Of a stretch of DNA of 64,000 nt, positions 335 through 8,819 are shown one piece after another (position 1 is the first letter of the stretch; every line of letters begins with the position of its first letter). This stretch comes from Candidatus Oxydemutatoraceae bacterium. GTDB taxonomy: Bacteria > Pseudomonadota > Gammaproteobacteria > Poriferisulfidales > Oxydemutatoraceae. The notes beneath the pieces were generated by a model. That model searched no databases and was not told where the DNA came from. It saw only the letters and a program-made list of their open reading frames with translations. Where the stretch lies: contig CBDCOZ010000001.1 in NCBI GenBank assembly GCA_965220085.1, positions 64,001 to 128,000 on the forward strand, written 5' to 3'. Position numbers and translations under genes: made by a program.

Positions 335-550
335 GTTTTGACTCCTCAATCAAGTCTGATATAATCCCGCACGATTTCTTCATAAGGGGGGTTTCAATAG
401 TTTTTGACGCCCCCCGATCAAGTCTGATATAATCACAATCACGGTTGATAAATATCGCCTAGAGTTTTGACCTCTCCTCGATCCTAGTCTGGTTCAATCC
501 AGTGAATGCGGTTCATAGCGCTAATGAGTTGCGGGGAAGTCTTAACTAAC
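335..550 (+). CRISPR. Degenerate type II-C mini-array (3 clear repeats plus a possible 4th)
   Basis: Repeats are 335-366 GTTTTGACTCCTCAATCAAGTCTGATATAATC, 400-434 GTTTTTGACGCCCCCCGATCAAGTCTGATATAATC and 464-499 GTTTTGACCTCTCCTCGATCCTAGTCTGGTTCAATC (36 nt). A weak 4th lies at 528-550. Period is 64-65 nt with unique 28-33 nt spacers, next to cas remnants and cas9. Confidence 0.85.
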
Positions 551-601
551 AAACCACCCAGGCGCTCCCTGCGAAAGCACATTGTCTCGGGTGGTTTTTT
601 T
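551..601 (+). terminator. Long hairpin plus U-tract ending the array transcript
   Basis: AAACCACCC...GGGTGGTTT stem with an inner TGC-GAAA-GCA tetraloop, followed by a T run. Confidence 0.65.
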
Positions 602-615
602 ATTAACTCGGGATT

Positions 616-810
616 TTATTCCCCAAAGATTGTCTGTCTGGGCACGATGAGTTTAGTCCGCTCGCTTCCGCAATCATAATCAGAACCCGTAACAGTTATT
701 CATCTAACAAAGCGTTCCGGAATTTTGTTGCTTGCTGTCGTTGCTTCTTGGTTAGCGCCGGCCAGTCAAACCATTCCGAGCGCCCATCCTGCTTTGAGGC
801 GTTTTAGTTC
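616..810 (-). pseudogene. cas2: cas2 remnant
   Basis: Manual translation across one frameshift gives GWALGM/FDWPALTKKQRQQATKFRNALLDE*. This matches the type II Cas2 N-terminal pattern W-x3-MFDLP-x2-TK-x2-R-x4-FR-x2-LL. There is a premature stop at 696-698. Confidence 0.75.
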
Positions 811-914
811 TTCGCGCTTTTTCTGCCCATCGGGCGATCCGCAAACCAAGAACCCTTTCTTTGCGGATGAGGGAATTGTGTCGGAGGATATGAACAGTGT
901 TGTGACTCGTTCAT
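811..914 (-). pseudogene. cas1: Probable cas1 5' remnant
   Basis: ATG overlaps the cas9 stop (ATGA). Frameshifted translation SHNTVHILRHNSLIRKE/GFLVCGSPDGQKKR resembles a type II Cas1 N-terminus, and it sits between cas9 and the cas2 stub. Confidence 0.45.
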
Positions 915-3900
915 GCTTTCGTCTTTCTTAGAACAAACCTCTTCTCTTTCCTATAGGGCTCTTCTTTCAGAAAGTGTTTCAAAGCGATTCTGCGCTTCTC
1001 ACCTTTCGCGGATGTCATTTCTATCTTGCCGGCAAATTCAATCGTGTTAAGCGTGTATATGCCGGCGCTTATTTCTTTCTGCTTTTCCATCAGTATGGTC
1101 TCCGTCACCTCTATGAGACACTTTGAATGGAAAAAGCCCAATACTTTTTGTATGCCCGGGTTGCTCTCTAATTCTTTTCCGATCGCATATCTTGACTCAA
1201 ACACCCTTACCGGTTTCACCCGCACTTTGTTTTTGCTGTCCAGATAAAGAAACTGTCCTTGGTCCGACTCTTTCCGAGTTTTAAATTGTCCGAATTGACC
1301 TCTGGAAATGTCTTTATAATTAGTGATATCTCCGTCTGCCACTCGGACTTTTTTCACTGCGGGGGTATCTTTGCTTAATTGGAAATTCTTGCAATATTTC
1401 CTCCATTGTTGCTCGGTCATTTTTTTCCGCCGATTAACCCATTTTTCCACTTTCTTGCGAATATCGGCATCGTATATCCTTGTAACATCCTTTTTTGTTT
1501 TCGCCAACCCGTCCCATTGGCCCTTTGAGGTGTCCCCCAAAGAGTCAAGAGGCACTCGATAAGTCGCTTGCTCTTCGCCGTTGGCAATGTTTCTCTTCCC
1601 GTAGACTGTCTCCCTGAAGATAGGCTTGTTAAAGCATATTTGGCGCGGCATGACGCGCTCAAGAACCGCGCCAAAGAATTTTTGCGGATCAGCCCTGAGC
1701 GCCTCCGCGGGAAGAGAAAAACAAAGCCGCCTGTCAGAACCTCTTGCCCAGTTTGGGATAAAAGACAATATCATCGCATCCAGCGCATGGCGCCGATTAT
1801 CATTTATGTTCTTTTCCGCATTCGCTCCTTCGTGCAGTAACTCAAGCAATTTATATTTTTGCGCAACCGCATTTGTCGCGCCCCTGCCGAGCACAGCGAC
1901 CTTTCTCTCCTCTCCGTCAAAATCCGCGTTCCAACCAAAATGTAAGCGCACGATCGCCTGCGTTAATTTTGCAATCCAAGCCGTTTGCCGGAGTCCGACG
2001 CGATGATTAACGGCCTTTGCGGCATCTTCCATGTTTGTCGCCGATAGCAGCGCGGCTTTAAATTTGGGGAATTTCTTTCCTCTCCCTTTCACCATCTCAT
2101 GGAGGCGCTCTATAAAGGCGCCCCATTTGCCTTCCCGCTTTAGCCAATCAGATGGCAAGCGGTCGCCTTGTTTGCGCTTACACTCTTTGCTGGCAAGCAC
2201 GAGATTCATGTAGGCGCACGGGCCGCCGTTGGAATCCGGAACGATAGGGGTTATCTCTGCCTCTTCAAAAAGTATCGCATCGGGCAAATCGTATGATTCG
2301 GACAGAGTGATCGGACGATCACAAAATATACAACGCTCCTCTTGCTCTTTCCAAAGTTGCCATTTCAGTAAGTTTTTCTGAGAAGGAGATATCCATTTTT
2401 CTTCCAGTTCTTTTTGCGCTTCCTTATCTCTTTGTTCGCGCTCCTCTTTATGTTTCTCGTAGTCGTTTTTTCTTTGTTCCGGTAACCAATCTTCTCTGAC
2501 AAACTCAATCGCCACTCTGTCGGGTGTGCCAAATTCCCTTTGCATATTTTTTATCTGCGAATAAAAAACCCCCAATCTATGGCGAACTATGGGGTCATTC
2601 TGGTCGGCAATCAGTTTTTGAATGGCCTTGGCTTGCTCGCCTTCTCCGCCTGCGGTTTTATATTCCGACAGCGTTTGATTGGGGATGTAAAGCCCGTCCC
2701 AACTATTGCCCATATGCTCCATAAAGGCCAAATCTTCTTTGACGAGCCCCTTTCTCTTATCAAAGTTTCCGGCAATCAGCCTCATTTCATTTTCCCTCAA
2801 GAAGTCTTGGGGCGATTTTCCGGAAAGAATCAGGTCTTTGACTATTCTCAGAGCCGGGCGCGAAAAGCGAGACCTTCCGAAAATTTTCGGAGCATCCACT
2901 TTGCCATTGTTCGGAGCCACACAATCTCCGCCATATTTATGAATATATTTTTCTAAGTCTTTTTTTGTCAGGCTTAGTTTCTTCGTAATCTTTTTTTCTA
3001 ATCTGTCTCGGACATTGGCATGAACCGCGTCCATGCGCTCATTGAATATGGCTCTGATCTCCTCGTATGCAAATGGTTTTGTCTCTTCGCCGGCTATAAA
3101 CCGGATGTTCTTTAGTTTCATCAAAAATGTTACCTGTGCGGAAAGGAGCGAGTCTTCCGAGATGTTGCCATGTGTGCCTTTGGGGGCGGCGCGGCACGCA
3201 TTGAAGCGAGGGATAAGAGCGCATTTATTCGGAGAGCGGTTATCAAATGTCGGTATCTTTTGTGCCAAAATTCCTTGCCAGTCGGTTTCCTTGCCTCTGA
3301 GCAACGCTTTCCTGCCCCCCGCTTTTTCGTATAGTTCGGGGTTGCCGCGCTCGGCATGATATGATGCATAGGCTTCGCCTGTGGGTCCATACAGCAGATA
3401 GTCTTCTTTTCCCGTGAGGGCGGGGTATTGCTTTTCCGCTTGCTTGAACATGCAACGCAGTTGCTTCTCTATCATGTGCCTGGGATACACGGCCATTGTG
3501 GGAGGCAACCACTTTGCGTCCTCTTTTGTTTTGCCTCCTTCTTTGTCTAATCTTTCTCTTGCTATCGGATCTTTCGTCTTGCCGACATGGGTGCTTTTGG
3601 CAGTATGGTCAATACGCAGTTTGCATGAGTCGGGTGATTTCGGATTCCATAAGCCCATGCGATACGCTTCCCAATAACACGGGTGGCGATGATTCGCATT
3701 TTTGCTTATTTTGCTTATGTTTTCTATTTCTTTCTGAATGCAGGCTGCGCGTTTGGCAGTCTCAGTTTTCTCCTTGTTTTCTTCTTTGCTCTTTGCATCA
3801 TCTTTATCGGCGAACAGCAGAGCGCTTTTCCATGGGGCATCCTTGTCAAACCCGCGTTTTTGAATCGCCGAATGAAACGCTTTGTACAATTGCCACTCTT

Positions 3901-4297
3901 CCAGTTTTTTGCCTTGCAAGAGCATAATCTGCAATAACGTCCCGCAGTACACTGTGTCATCGTCCTTTGCGGGAAATTCTCTTTCCAGTCTCTCGTCGCC
4001 GCTCTTAAGTTTTTCTTTTCCTTCGCTACTGACAATCTTCGCGCCGTTCAGCGTTTCCAGCCCCGCTTCTCGGAAAACTTTCCGCAGCCATTCCTCTCGT
4101 TTTTTGTGTGCCAATCTGCTTCTATAAGCGCGTCGCCGCTCCGCCGCAGACTTCGTTGACGCAAACTTATCGGGAATCAACAAAGAGTCAACTTTGTTAA
4201 ATTCAAACGGGTCGCCTTTGGCTCCGCGAACTGCGTATCCCAGTGAGCCGGTTCCAATATCAAATGACCAAATATGTTTTTGTTGATTGTTCGTCAT
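911..4297 (-). CDS. cas9: Type II-C Cas9 (1128 aa), HNH predicted inactive
   Basis: RuvC-I WSFDIG, Arg-rich bridge helix, IQKRGF, RuvC-II AIEFVRE, RuvC-III RHALDA. The HNH region reads EITPIVP...NLVL...CKRKQG. AGGAG RBS upstream. Confidence 0.95.
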   Translation of the reverse strand: MTNNQQKHIWSFDIGTGSLGYAVRGAKGDPFEFNKVDSLLIPDKFASTKSAAERRRAYRSRLAHKKREEWLRKVFREAGLETLNGAKIVSSEGKEKLKSGDERLEREFPAKDDDTVYCGTLLQIMLLQGKKLEEWQLYKAFHSAIQKRGFDKDAPWKSALLFADKDDAKSKEENKEKTETAKRAACIQKEIENISKISKNANHRHPCYWEAYRMGLWNPKSPDSCKLRIDHTAKSTHVGKTKDPIARERLDKEGGKTKEDAKWLPPTMAVYPRHMIEKQLRCMFKQAEKQYPALTGKEDYLLYGPTGEAYASYHAERGNPELYEKAGGRKALLRGKETDWQGILAQKIPTFDNRSPNKCALIPRFNACRAAPKGTHGNISEDSLLSAQVTFLMKLKNIRFIAGEETKPFAYEEIRAIFNERMDAVHANVRDRLEKKITKKLSLTKKDLEKYIHKYGGDCVAPNNGKVDAPKIFGRSRFSRPALRIVKDLILSGKSPQDFLRENEMRLIAGNFDKRKGLVKEDLAFMEHMGNSWDGLYIPNQTLSEYKTAGGEGEQAKAIQKLIADQNDPIVRHRLGVFYSQIKNMQREFGTPDRVAIEFVREDWLPEQRKNDYEKHKEEREQRDKEAQKELEEKWISPSQKNLLKWQLWKEQEERCIFCDRPITLSESYDLPDAILFEEAEITPIVPDSNGGPCAYMNLVLASKECKRKQGDRLPSDWLKREGKWGAFIERLHEMVKGRGKKFPKFKAALLSATNMEDAAKAVNHRVGLRQTAWIAKLTQAIVRLHFGWNADFDGEERKVAVLGRGATNAVAQKYKLLELLHEGANAEKNINDNRRHALDAMILSFIPNWARGSDRRLCFSLPAEALRADPQKFFGAVLERVMPRQICFNKPIFRETVYGKRNIANGEEQATYRVPLDSLGDTSKGQWDGLAKTKKDVTRIYDADIRKKVEKWVNRRKKMTEQQWRKYCKNFQLSKDTPAVKKVRVADGDITNYKDISRGQFGQFKTRKESDQGQFLYLDSKNKVRVKPVRVFESRYAIGKELESNPGIQKVLGFFHSKCLIEVTETILMEKQKEISAGIYTLNTIEFAGKIEMTSAKGEKRRIALKHFLKEEPYRKEKRFVLRKTKA

Positions 4298-4304
4298 GTT
4301 GTTT

Positions 4305-4352
4305 CTCCTGTTATTTTATAAGCATTATAGTATGAGGCGCCTGCGGAAGGCA
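4305..4352 (-). promoter_or_regulatory. Putative cas9 promoter (-10 TATAAT at 4324-4329) and RBS (4305-4309)
   Basis: Minus strand reads TACTATAAT...AACAGGAGAAACAACATG. The -35 is weak. Confidence 0.5.
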
Positions 4353-4381
4353 GGGGTGTTGAATACTCAACCAATCTATAT

Positions 4382-4481
4382 CGCAACTCAAATTATACCC
4401 GCAGAATGTCAAAGTAACCTAGCCATTGATGAATCTTGGGTTGCTACGCAATTCAGATTATGCCCGCGGAAGGTCAAAGTA
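4382..4481 (+). repeat. 35-nt direct repeat (4382-4416, 4447-4481) containing the anti-repeat
   Basis: 30/35 identical by manual alignment, separated by 30 nt. Confidence 0.85.
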
Positions 4482-4540
4482 GGGTATTGGATACCGCAAA
4501 TGCATATGCTGCCTTGTCCCGCGCCGGCGGGCGAACCGTT
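4447..4540 (+). ncRNA. Candidate tracrRNA
   Basis: CGCGGAAGGTCAAAGT (4465-4480) can pair with repeat 3 GTTTTGACCTCTCCTCG with 2 GU pairs, 1 bulge and 1 mismatch. It is followed by a nexus-like AG-GGTAT-TGG-ATACC-GCAA hairpin and a CCCGC-GCCG-GCGGG hairpin. It is divergent from cas9, as in II-C loci. Confidence 0.65.
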
Positions 4541-4639
4541 GTCTGACTATGTATAATCCCCTAAATAGTGATCCTTTTCGCACGGTGTATAGCCCATGAA
4601 TGGCACAGTCGAATCCTTCTGCAACAATAAAAAGCTAAA

Positions 4640-5893
4640 GTGGGGCCACACAAAATCCGGAGAGTCTCATGCTATGCGCTTTATGATGATGTTATGACCG
4701 CCTGCAACATAGATGATATAAGGCAATTGCTGGACGATGCATCCGGTCTGGATTTGAGTGCGCCGCAGTACAATCCCACATTCATGCAAATAGCGGGGCG
4801 CCCGCACCTTGAGGATGTTATCAGCAACACGCTGCGATTCTTTATGGACCCGAAGGAGCCCCATGAACTGGGAACCTTGTTCTTGGAAGCATTGTTGGAT
4901 GCGCGGAGCGAATCGGCAAAACAGAATTGCCCCGACATATCTTCCTCCCGCGATATAAAAGTTGAGCGTGAGCATAGCACAAAGGAGAGCGGGAGTGCGC
5001 CCAGGATAGATCTATGGGTTGAAAGCGACACACATATAATCGCCATAGAGAACAAGATATACGCCGCTTCTCACAATCCATTAAAAGATTATTACGCGCA
5101 TGCTAAAGACCAATCTAAAGGGGAGCCAATCTGTTGCTACTTATGCCTGAACAGACCTAAGTTGAGCAATCAGGAATTACACAACTTTGAGGCGATTGAG
5201 TACCGAAAATTTTTGGACAAGATAGAAGGAAGGCTGGGTAACCGACTTGCTCATTCGGATCAGCAACATTACACTCCCTTTGTCTTGGACTTTCTCAGAC
5301 AATTGAAATATCTATCGGAGGGCTGCCCCATGAATGAAAGTTTGATAAACCTGTTCAAGGAACACAAAGAGCACAAGGAAGTCGCTCCAAGCTTAGTGAA
5401 CAGCATTCGTGAAGACAGCGCGCGTGTGAAAGGCGAAGTGAAAAAGGTGAAAGGCGAAGTGGAAAAGGTGGCCAAGGGGCTAACAGGTGACGGAGGCGAA
5501 GAATGGAATATATGGGCATGGGATGTTTTGCTATTACATTGTGTCTTGGTTTGTGACTATGTAAAGAAGTTTAGTGGGTCAGAAACAAAAGACATGAAAA
5601 TAGCAATAGATGCCGTGTATTCCATAACGGGTGAATGGGACATTTTCGTTTTCTCTCGTCAAGAACGGGTCTCAGATAAGCACAAGGAATTTTGGGATTC
5701 ATTAAAGTTGAAAGATGGAGATACCAAAGGTACAGATATCCCGAGCGAATATAAAGAAAAGTGGGAAGATTGGGAGAAGGAAGAGAAAGGCGCCCCGCGT
5801 GTACGGGTAGCGCACTTTGAAGGTGGCACAGGTTCCGAGGTTGTTGTTGAGTGTCTAAAGAAAGTTTTAGAACAGATCACATCGCCCGGCTAA
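4640..5893 (+). CDS. PD-(D/E)XK nuclease superfamily protein (PDDEXK_4-like); start uncertain
   Basis: E-x3-S-x2-L-x3-DP-x3-H-x-LG motif, VEREH and RIDL-x9-IENKI. AT-richer than the core genes. Confidence 0.8.
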   Translation: MGPHKIRRVSCYALYDDVMTACNIDDIRQLLDDASGLDLSAPQYNPTFMQIAGRPHLEDVISNTLRFFMDPKEPHELGTLFLEALLDARSESAKQNCPDISSSRDIKVEREHSTKESGSAPRIDLWVESDTHIIAIENKIYAASHNPLKDYYAHAKDQSKGEPICCYLCLNRPKLSNQELHNFEAIEYRKFLDKIEGRLGNRLAHSDQQHYTPFVLDFLRQLKYLSEGCPMNESLINLFKEHKEHKEVAPSLVNSIREDSARVKGEVKKVKGEVEKVAKGLTGDGGEEWNIWAWDVLLLHCVLVCDYVKKFSGSETKDMKIAIDAVYSITGEWDIFVFSRQERVSDKHKEFWDSLKLKDGDTKGTDIPSEYKEKWEDWEKEEKGAPRVRVAHFEGGTGSEVVVECLKKVLEQITSPG

Positions 5894-6063
5894 AAATATT
5901 CGTTAAGCAGTTTTATGTTTCGCCGTTTGGAGTGCGGTAATGTCATACATCGTACTTTTTGAACCGTTCATCGGGATTTTGTAATTTTATCGATCACAAT
6001 TTTTAGTTGTCGATAGAAATCTATCTTCGCTTGTTCATTTTTATCTGCTATGGTAGGAGCCTT

Positions 6064-6411
6064 ATGTCGCAGATAACATTTGACAGTCATCGTTTTGTAA
6101 AGGGCGCGGTTGAAACGGGCTTTAGCGAAAAGCAAGCCGAGTTTCTGGCAGCTGCTCACAGATTTTTCACCGGGCATATTGCTACGAAGGAAGATATCTT
6201 TGGCTTGGGGAAAAGAATAGATGGCTTGGAGCAAAGAATAGATAGGTTAGAGCAAAGAGTAGATGGCTTGGAGCAAAGAATGGACAGGCTAGAACAGAGA
6301 ATGGATAGCTTGGAGCAGAGAGTGGATAGTCTAGAAAAAACGATGTGGCGTATTGCTGTTATGCAAATGGGTTTTATTTCTATCTTGTTTGCTTTAATAA
6401 AGATCCTCTAG
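6064..6411 (+). CDS. DUF1640/CCDC90-like coiled-coil protein with C-terminal TM
   Basis: FDSHRFV...GFSEKQAE...ATKED, six R(I/V/M)DxLE(Q/K) heptads, hydrophobic tail, AGGAG RBS. Confidence 0.75.
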   Translation: MSQITFDSHRFVKGAVETGFSEKQAEFLAAAHRFFTGHIATKEDIFGLGKRIDGLEQRIDRLEQRVDGLEQRMDRLEQRMDSLEQRVDSLEKTMWRIAVMQMGFISILFALIKIL

Positions 6412-6423
6412 TTAAAACCCGTA

Positions 6424-6576
6424 TCCCCCTCACCGGCTCGCTGCGTTTGCCGACTCTCCCGCGCAGGGAGAATGTTCCCCCTCACCGCTCGCTACGCTTG
6501 CCAGCTCTCCCGCGAGGGGAGAATGTTTCCCCTCACCGGCTCGCTACATCTGCCGACTCTCCCGCGCAGGGAGAGC
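6424..6576. repeat. Three tandem 51-52 bp REP-like palindromic units
   Basis: CCCCTCACC...CTCTCCCGCG(C)AGGG(G)AGA at 6426, 6478 and 6529. Confidence 0.8.
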
Positions 6577-8657: not shown

Positions 8658-8734
8658 TGGCGCGCCCGAGAGGATTCGAACCCCTGACTTCTGCCTCCGG
8701 AGGGCAGCGCTCTATCCGGCTGAGCTACGGGCGC
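8658..8734 (-). tRNA. tRNA-Arg(CCG)
   Basis: GCGCCCGTAGCTCAG...CTGCC-CTCCGGA-GGCAG...GGTTCGAATCC...CCA, 77 nt. Confidence 0.97.
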
Positions 8735-8743
8735 ACGATGTGC

Positions 8744-8819
<76 letters not shown>

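Follow-up and report, generated by a model that had tools for sequence, protein, structure and literature searches.

The 64,000-nucleotide stretch of DNA analysed here (hereafter, the window; C1:64001-128000) comes from a 2.49-Mb, 99% complete genome of the family Oxydemutatoraceae in three contigs, and carries near its start a broken type II CRISPR locus. In this locus a full-length cas9 lies beside stubs of cas1 and cas2 and three dissimilar repeats. Judged from its sequence, the encoded Cas9 has lost the catalytic residues of its HNH nuclease domain and kept those of RuvC, and the gene appears to have been held open by selection after the adaptation genes died. With about even confidence, we regard the protein as a selected non-cleaving effector, either a DNA binder or a nickase of the non-target strand, that may draw on the CRISPR RNAs (crRNAs) of an intact sister array in the same genome.

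A complete cas9 among the remnants of its locus

The locus comprises the following elements (window coordinates, strand, description):

335-366, plus: degenerate repeat R1, 32 nt; promoter-like TTGACT-16-TATAAT, TG-preceded, boxes at 338-365, 11/12 matches
367-399, plus: spacer S1, 33 nt, between R1 and R2
400-434, plus: degenerate repeat R2, 35 nt; promoter-like TTGACG-18-TATAAT, TG-preceded, boxes at 404-433, 11/12 matches
435-463, plus: spacer S2, 29 nt, between R2 and R3
464-499, plus: degenerate terminal repeat R3, with the 5' GTTTTGAC kept and the -10 box lost
~500-601, plus (the array strand): scaffold resembling a trans-activating CRISPR RNA (tracrRNA), with anti-repeat, terminator hairpin and T-run
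533-546, plus: anti-repeat core GGGGAAGTCTTAAC, its GGGAAGTCTTAAC part identical in the window and sister loci
554-559 and 589-594, plus: predicted stem of the tracr terminator, with a T-run at 595-601 (sequence and fold prediction)
619-790, minus: two-piece cas2 remnant (of the sister open reading frame, ORF, residues 31-54 and 103-131 are left), with a 1-nt insertion and a 151-nt deletion
801-910, minus: cas1 remnant, the first 37 codons, with an ACG start and a 2-nt deletion, the remaining ~800 nt gone
911-4297, minus: intact cas9 paralogue, a single ORF of 1128 aa with 0 internal stops
4305-4309, minus: likely cas9 ribosome-binding site AGGAG, read from sequence
4324-4329, minus: likely cas9 promoter -10 box TATAAT, read from sequence

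The cas9 product scores 790 bits against the NCBIfam family NF049971 'Cas9d' (cut-off 375) and 169.2 bits against the Cas9 family TIGR01865 (cut-off 100). It has no Pfam match at E up to 0.1, a blank that hints at an HNH motif that is off. The catalytic His of HNH is found in 119 of 120 aligned relatives, the window Cas9 alone having Pro (H684P), and the metal-binding Asn is likewise found in 119 of the 120, the window Cas9 alone having Lys (N707K). Around this motif the two closest relatives show a four-Cys pattern, of which the third (zinc) Cys is Ser in the window Cas9, with neighbouring Gly-to-Arg and Asn-to-Lys changes. A substitute catalytic residue was considered and rejected, there being no His anywhere in the motif stretch. 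At the RuvC site, D13 is kept in a column that holds Asp in 117 of the 120 proteins and gaps in the other three, and E598, H837 and D840 are kept in all 120. On these residues the HNH domain of the window Cas9 appears to be catalytically dead, as the initial annotation of this DNA had supposed. Its description of the 3.4-kb gene as free of stops and frameshifts also stands, save for a 1-nt insertion relative to the sister gene, five codons ahead of the stop, which alters the last residues only. An AlphaFold2 model built with 68 relatives as input (mean predicted local distance difference test, pLDDT, 81.9) predicts a full Cas9 architecture with the beta-beta-alpha elements of HNH in place. The top Foldseek matches of this model are St1Cas9, SaCas9, ThermoCas9 (Thermo/Geo) and Nme1Cas9, with E down to 7.8e-25 and template modelling (TM) scores of 0.45/0.48.

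The closest relatives of the window Cas9 are P0002 (75% identical) and P0003 (73%), both of which keep the HNH His and Asn. P0003, of 1145 aa, is encoded in the same genome by a sister locus (C2:224140-227737) whose DNA is 78-84% identical to window 801-4350, a range in which cas9 and the 53 nt upstream of its start lie, the homology upstream of the gene ending at about 4350-4370. The sister cas1 encodes 301 aa (Pfam, 100.3 bits), the sister cas2 is matched by Pfam at 67.1 bits, and the sister array holds 66 essentially identical 36-nt repeats at a period of 66, with 65 unique spacers. To this locus the cas2 remnants of the window are 88-91% identical and the stretch after its array 88%. The presence of an intact sister locus with a 73% identical Cas9 is our reason for regarding the window locus as a degraded paralogue of the complete type II locus on contig C2. 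P0003 differs from both the window Cas9 and P0002 in a 15-residue tandem duplication at residues ~415-445, with two KLKEIFDECMQDVNN-like copies. Located 5' of the sister cas9, at C2:227696-229059, are ORFs of 72 aa and 382 aa, which we take, from their sequences, to be a truncated PIN-like protein and an antitoxin-type peptidase.

The adaptation genes of the window are plainly broken. Searched with tblastn, residues 2-37 of the sister Cas1 fall at window 802-907 in two frames, and those of the sister Cas2 at 699-770 (residues 31-54) and 619-705 (residues 103-131, with a stop). In the nucleotide alignment, five disabling lesions lie within the ~290 nt of cas1/cas2 remnant and none inside cas9, the disparity between stubs and whole gene to which the initial annotation had drawn attention. 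In cas1 these are the change of the start from ATG to ACG, the 2-nt deletion and the ~800-nt deletion, and in cas2 the 1-nt insertion and the 151-nt internal deletion, which introduces a stop; three of the lesions are small. The cas2 remnant has 15 mismatches to its sister in 155 nt (9.7%), of which 12 are nonsynonymous and 3 synonymous, a substitution pattern that looks like neutral drift, and the cas1 remnant has 20 mismatches in 109 nt plus 3 gap columns. When neutral substitution was simulated on cas9, the number of runs in which the frame survived fell from 441 of 2000 at d=0.01 to 27 of 2000 at d=0.03, and no run out of 2000 kept it at d=0.05. Together, the ~10% drift of cas2, the lesions of the remnants and this simulation make it a well-supported reading of the sequences that cas9 was kept by selection after cas1 and cas2 had died, as first proposed for this locus; the argument does not date the loss of HNH.

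Comparison of the two cas9 genes points the same way. The ratio of nonsynonymous to synonymous substitution rates (dN/dS), a calculation suggested with the initial annotation, is 0.25 by the Nei-Gojobori method (NG86; dS 0.61, dN 0.155). It is at most 0.45 in every 100-codon window and 0.32-0.36 in HNH, values that show the two genes to have evolved under purifying selection. In a maximum-likelihood tree the window cas9 branch measures 0.21, against 0.065 and 0.089 for P0002/P0003. Polarisation with outgroups accounts for part of this difference in length. Of the 190 residue differences peculiar to the window copy, 61 could be so polarised, 37 being derived here and 24 on the P0002/P0003 stem; therefore there has been no runaway acceleration, and the window copy's own rate is near that of its relatives.

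The changes are unevenly placed. The other 119 proteins have 123 near-invariant columns, and the window Cas9 departs at 11 of these, tied highest of the 120. The nuclease domains account for nine of the 11 departures and for 61 of the 123 columns (P=0.025; the count includes changes shared with P0002/P0003). The window-only changes at such columns are T60S, H684P, N707K, G805R, R831I and H836R. The last three adjoin the RuvC-III catalytic His; in SpCas9 the corresponding positions border the groove in which the non-target strand lies. The bridge helix and its surroundings have hardly changed. This pattern of damage is what one might see if nuclease function were relaxed or altered while the protein went on binding RNA and DNA, and would also fit the first steps of general decay.

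Proteins in a comparable state are scarce. P0002 is the sole other close relative of the window Cas9 among 5.8 billion proteins, and when 1.84 billion cluster representatives were scanned in full, 1341 relatives came up at E up to 0.001. From the best 150 of these 1341 an HNH survey alignment of 152 sequences was made, comprising 147 representatives and 5 further proteins, of which 131 sequences cover the His column. His stands in 129 of the 131, the exceptions being the window Cas9 and P0241, a metagenomic singleton of 1152 aa that is 33% identical to it. P0241 carries D-to-T and D-to-N changes in RuvC and H-to-P and N-to-C changes in HNH, and on these residues appears fully dead; its nearest relative (44% identical) has an HNH Pfam match. 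Both exceptions are full-length singletons with the HNH His replaced by Pro, and they differ in that P0241 also lacks two RuvC residues. In a further protein, P0258 (1179 aa), Asn takes the place of the RuvC-I Asp. Dead sites in otherwise intact Cas9 genes seem, on this survey, to occur rarely and sporadically. Protein-pattern scans of metagenome and genome contigs revealed no relative, and 19 nt of the window's repeat matched singly in 9 metagenome and 5 genome contigs, about the number estimated by chance, none encoding a relative. Our literature search found no description of a natural HNH-dead Cas9, nor are we aware of any report of a natural Cas9 retained after loss of HNH catalysis; in the passage of the 2025 classification (PMC12669027), the one such case given is the reverse, a phage Cas9 whose RuvC site is dead.

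Repeats, tracrRNA candidate and genomic setting

R1, R2 and R3 are homologous to the 66-copy sister repeat, yet unlike one another, three degenerate units whose wide divergence had been noted at the outset. The two best sigma-70-like matches within the first 5 kb fall in R1 and R2, and if transcription began ~7 nt past the -10 box of R2 the S2 guide would be ~23 nt long. In the predicted fold, the 5' part of R3 pairs in cis with the anti-repeat. The stretch of S2, R3 and tracr takes a single-guide-like fold (z -2.2; the homologous sister stretch, z -5.8) and would, if modelled correctly, form a natural single-guide RNA.

The tracrRNA candidate itself was assigned by homology. At the sister locus the last repeat runs into sequence that complements the repeat in two of its parts, followed by a strong terminator hairpin and a T-run, and the corresponding window stretch, after the array on the plus strand, is 87.9% identical from 530 onwards. 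The tracr-like RNA had initially been placed in a divergent element upstream of cas9, which is a poorer tracrRNA candidate than the sister-homologous stretch. None of the 27 predicted tracr pairs is broken between the loci, weak evidence given that the structure was predicted from the same two sequences. In the window only two tRNAs reach the gathering score of an Rfam family.

Pairing energies distinguish two possible sources of guides. The window tracr pairs with the sister repeat at -26.4 kcal/mol (z -3.6), close to the -28.1 of the sister tracr with its own repeat. With the window's own repeats it reaches -17.1 to -21.2 kcal/mol, which does not stand out from shuffled controls (z above -1.5). 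Because the sister repeat pairs better with the window tracr than the window's own repeats do, crRNAs from the sister array would, if the protein works, be at least as likely a source of guides as the two fixed spacers. For the 65 sister spacers the phage collection held no match, and the genome only matches of 15-19 nt, at the level of chance; with no targets, no protospacer-adjacent motif (PAM) could be derived from them.

The mechanism that we envisage is as follows. The window Cas9 would still bind a crRNA:tracrRNA scaffold, a step suggested by its almost unchanged bridge helix and by an anti-repeat core identical to that of the sister. It would find PAM-flanked DNA, would be unable to cut the target strand, and would thus serve to bind DNA or, given a working RuvC, to nick the non-target strand. 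Guides might be supplied by its own two spacers, transcribed from the promoter-like boxes in R1 and R2, with the last spacer joined to the tracr scaffold in one natural single-guide transcript; alternatively, and in our view more probably, the 65 crRNAs of the intact sister array might be used. Silencing without cutting, modulation of the sister system and help in spacer choice are possible benefits.

Flanking the locus are these further elements:

49-333, plus: truncated 3' end of an insertion sequence, which stops one base before R1 and marks the leader-side break of the array
~4317-4351, no strand assigned: weaker third unit of the upstream repeats, overlapping the likely cas9 -10 box
4382-4416 and 4447-4481, no strand assigned: a pair of 35-nt direct repeats upstream of cas9, at a spacing of 65 nt and 86% alike
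4640-5893, plus: PD-(D/E)XK nuclease-family gene (PF14281, 65.7 bits), PADLOC candidate PDC-S26 (PDLC04975, E 3e-55)

The 35-nt units upstream of cas9 are CRISPR-repeat-like on the minus strand and anti-repeat-like on the plus strand, and one of them, D3b(+), pairs with R3 at -25.0 kcal/mol (z -2.5). They have no other occurrence in the genome and are absent from the sister locus. We considered them as a mini-array and rejected the idea, the intervening sequences having no target and the units no other genomic occurrence.

On the other side of the locus, the truncated insertion-sequence end lies directly left of R1, and we attribute the loss of the leader side of the array to it. Among eight aligned copies, full ones run upstream into a transposase-like frame, and the window copy does not. 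The family has more than 40 matches in the 2.5-Mb genome, copies or 3'-end fragments (e.g., C3:1301434-1301706, C3:917058-917328 and C1:22171-22429). Another end of the same insertion sequence abuts an orphan partial repeat of the sister type (19 nt exact; C3:42690, minus strand) with no more repeats or cas genes adjoining, an arrangement that suggests entry of the insertion sequence into an array or rearrangement of one.

From ~500 to 6500 the guanine-plus-cytosine (GC) content is 41-51%, against 54-64% beyond, and this low-GC stretch, with cas9 and the PDC-S26 candidate, is a small defence island among housekeeping genes. The PD-(D/E)XK gene lies within it, divergent from cas9. The neighbouring ORFs encode a 465-aa protein with no Pfam match, the PDDEXK_4/PDC-S26 protein and a coiled-coil protein, after which come housekeeping genes. 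A transposon-borne system with a nuclease-dead effector was rejected, no Tn7-like transposition genes being found among the neighbouring ORFs scanned. Two tRNA genes (8661-8819, minus strand; Rfam, 65 and 73 bits) lie ~2 kb past the end of the island.

Elsewhere in the genome, C3:1907098-1916955 holds a type V-A system with Cas1, ~60 repeats of period 62 and a 1297-aa protein that we take, from its N-terminal sequence and the repeat, to be Cas12a. A tandem repeat of period 50 and 14.9 copies lies at C3:1901649-1902394, beside genes for secreted-looking proteins. The window sequence is identical in the Logan contigs of one run (30/30 bins, 0 differences), which may be the source sample; a Hi-C raw-read run yielded no reads on the stretch.

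Selected effector, decaying copy or fixed-guide repressor

Simple decay is a serious rival, although we put its probability somewhat below even. In that account the window copy was redundant, its array and adaptation genes were lost first, HNH was hit recently, and the frame is open only for want of time. Redundancy is easy to credit in a genome with two other CRISPR systems that have large arrays, the sister type II locus and the type V-A locus. Every other part of the window locus is broken, an insertion-sequence fragment abuts its array, its repeats pair poorly with its tracr, neither an orthologue nor a spacer target was found, and the 1-nt insertion already alters the last cas9 codons. 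The 11 departures among the 123 near-invariant columns, tied highest among 120 proteins, are in keeping with decay, and with 441 of 2000 simulated frames open at d=0.01 a short neutral period is possible. The account sits less easily with a dN/dS of 0.25 and no window above 0.45. The several changes in the HNH core suggest that some time has elapsed since the first of them arose, yet elsewhere the 3.4-kb frame is clean, and a 9.7% drift of cas2 with three small lesions in ~290 nt predicts many lesions in cas9. The radical changes specific to this copy, moreover, cluster in the nuclease domains and spare the RNA-binding parts.

A number of observations weigh against a selected non-cleaving effector. 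The window Cas9 is a singleton among the 5.8 billion proteins, with no orthologue in the same HNH state, and none of the 18 other genomes of the family has any homologue of it. Neither S1 nor S2 has a target above chance in the genome, in either CRISPR locus or in the phage collection, the last searched with window 335-612. Promoter-like sites overall are at the level of chance (6 found, 5.0 expected), and conservation of the window tracr region (12.2% mismatch) does not exceed that of the dead cas2 remnant (9.7%). G805R, R831I and H836R, at otherwise invariant RuvC-III positions, could mark the onset of general decay. A nuclease that was still active when cas1 and cas2 had gone, and whose HNH failed only recently, would have been under selection in the same way; the slight rise of dN/dS in HNH agrees both with a recent loss and with a structural role that is kept. 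Furthermore, dS varies from 0.26 to 1.4 along cas9: between 911-4297 and C2:224251-227685 it is ~0.26 at the 5' end of the gene and 1.0-1.4 at the 3' end, and the cas2-tracr stretch, ~10-12% diverged, is far less so than that 3' end. Such mosaic divergence points to recombination between the window and sister loci, by which clock arguments are weakened.

The initial annotation had Cas9 kept with a few fixed guides, for example as an RNA-guided repressor, nickase or recombination stimulator. In the repressor version the two spacers, or the upstream units, would bring the HNH-dead Cas9 to promoters of host or cas genes and so repress them. The promoter-like boxes kept in R1 and R2, the predicted natural single-guide fold and the repeat-like units right beside the cas9 promoter speak for such a repressor, and passages of PMC10120712 describe regulators of this kind in type II loci. 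Genome-wide, however, 12-nt PAM-proximal seeds with at most 1 mismatch have 20 non-self matches for S1 and 3 for S2, where ~11 are estimated by chance, and none lies in either CRISPR locus. No seed match of at least 8 nt occurs upstream of either cas9, and neither the stretch before the anti-repeat nor the sequences between the upstream units had a target match above chance. We consider this version improbable. Of the broader proposal that Cas9 was kept for a non-adaptive role, the part that concerns selection after the loss of adaptation stands, the fixed guides do not, and a present non-cutting role is plausible.

A more specific form of the selected non-cleaving effector would be a natural two-effector type II system, in which a cutting Cas9 and an HNH-dead paralogue share a tracr scaffold and a crRNA pool. 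We think this form rather unlikely. Were it true, one immune memory would serve both proteins, the first cutting and the second binding, silencing or making single-strand nicks, and the pair would include a naturally evolved equivalent, maintained by selection, of the nickase or dCas9 made in the laboratory. Genome engineering relies heavily on Cas9 that is nuclease-dead or has a single working site. A functional window Cas9 would mean that type II effectors, like some type V effectors, can evolve into non-cutting RNA-guided binders or nickases, and would provide a natural paralogue pair for asking how two Cas9s share guides. If the copy is only decaying, the locus is a clean snapshot of a redundant type II system falling apart, array and adaptation genes first and effector last.

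Relation to known type II systems

The sister locus has the layout of type II-C, cas9-cas1-cas2-array with the array convergent on cas9; no csn2 turned up in it, although no family search aimed at csn2 was made. The Neisseria/Campylobacter II-C layout named in the initial annotation thus fits the gene order, whereas the family name given to the protein by NCBIfam is Cas9d. As in Neisseria and Campylobacter II-C, the repeats carry an extended -10-like box, and the nearest solved structures by profile and fold are mid-size II-A/II-C Cas9s (Nme1, Geo/ThermoCas9, St1 and Sa). Transcription of crRNAs from promoters inside repeats is described for some type II systems in a passage of PMC5965381. The window locus departs from II-C in that its cas1 and cas2 are reduced to stubs, its three repeats differ from one another, its HNH appears to be dead and its tracr candidate follows the last repeat at once, on the array strand, besides the Cas9d name of its protein.

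The likeness to type II-D (Cas9d) rests in the NF049971 score, 790 bits against a cut-off of 375. II-D loci share cas1, cas2 and cas4 in the relevant passage of the 2025 classification (PMC12669027). The window system departs from them in that the 99% complete genome has no Cas4 (PF01930) match and in that its Cas9, at 1128 aa, is not compact. The 736-aa solved chain 9k32, which we assume to be a compact Cas9d, matches the window Cas9 in the HNH region only, at E 3.4e-13, far below the mid-size Cas9s. The finding is the same whichever subtype applies.

Two kinds of natural precedent bear on a Cas9 that does not cut. With the Francisella scaRNA and the S. pyogenes long tracrRNA, repeat-like RNAs make Cas9 a non-cutting repressor, as passages of PMC10120712 relate. 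The window resembles these in its predicted natural single-guide arrangement; it differs in that they combine short complementarity with an active nuclease, whereas its own nuclease appears disabled and no partially matching target was found. The phage variant II-C2, in the passage of PMC12669027 that treats it, has a Cas9 with inactivated RuvC and an apparently active HNH. Like II-C2, the window Cas9 is a natural protein that seems to have lost one nuclease site, but the site lost is the opposite one, and it is chromosomal, stands beside a paralogue read as active, and is a single instance.

A further parallel is an engineered one. In the H840A nickase the general-base His of HNH is lost, the RuvC residues are kept, and the enzyme cuts the non-target strand; cutting by RuvC depends on the docking of HNH. 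The window Cas9 is like this nickase, and like dCas9, in being without the HNH general-base His, with the RuvC residues kept. Unlike the engineered protein, it is natural and carries further changes: Asn to Lys, the zinc Cys to Ser, and three beside the RuvC site.

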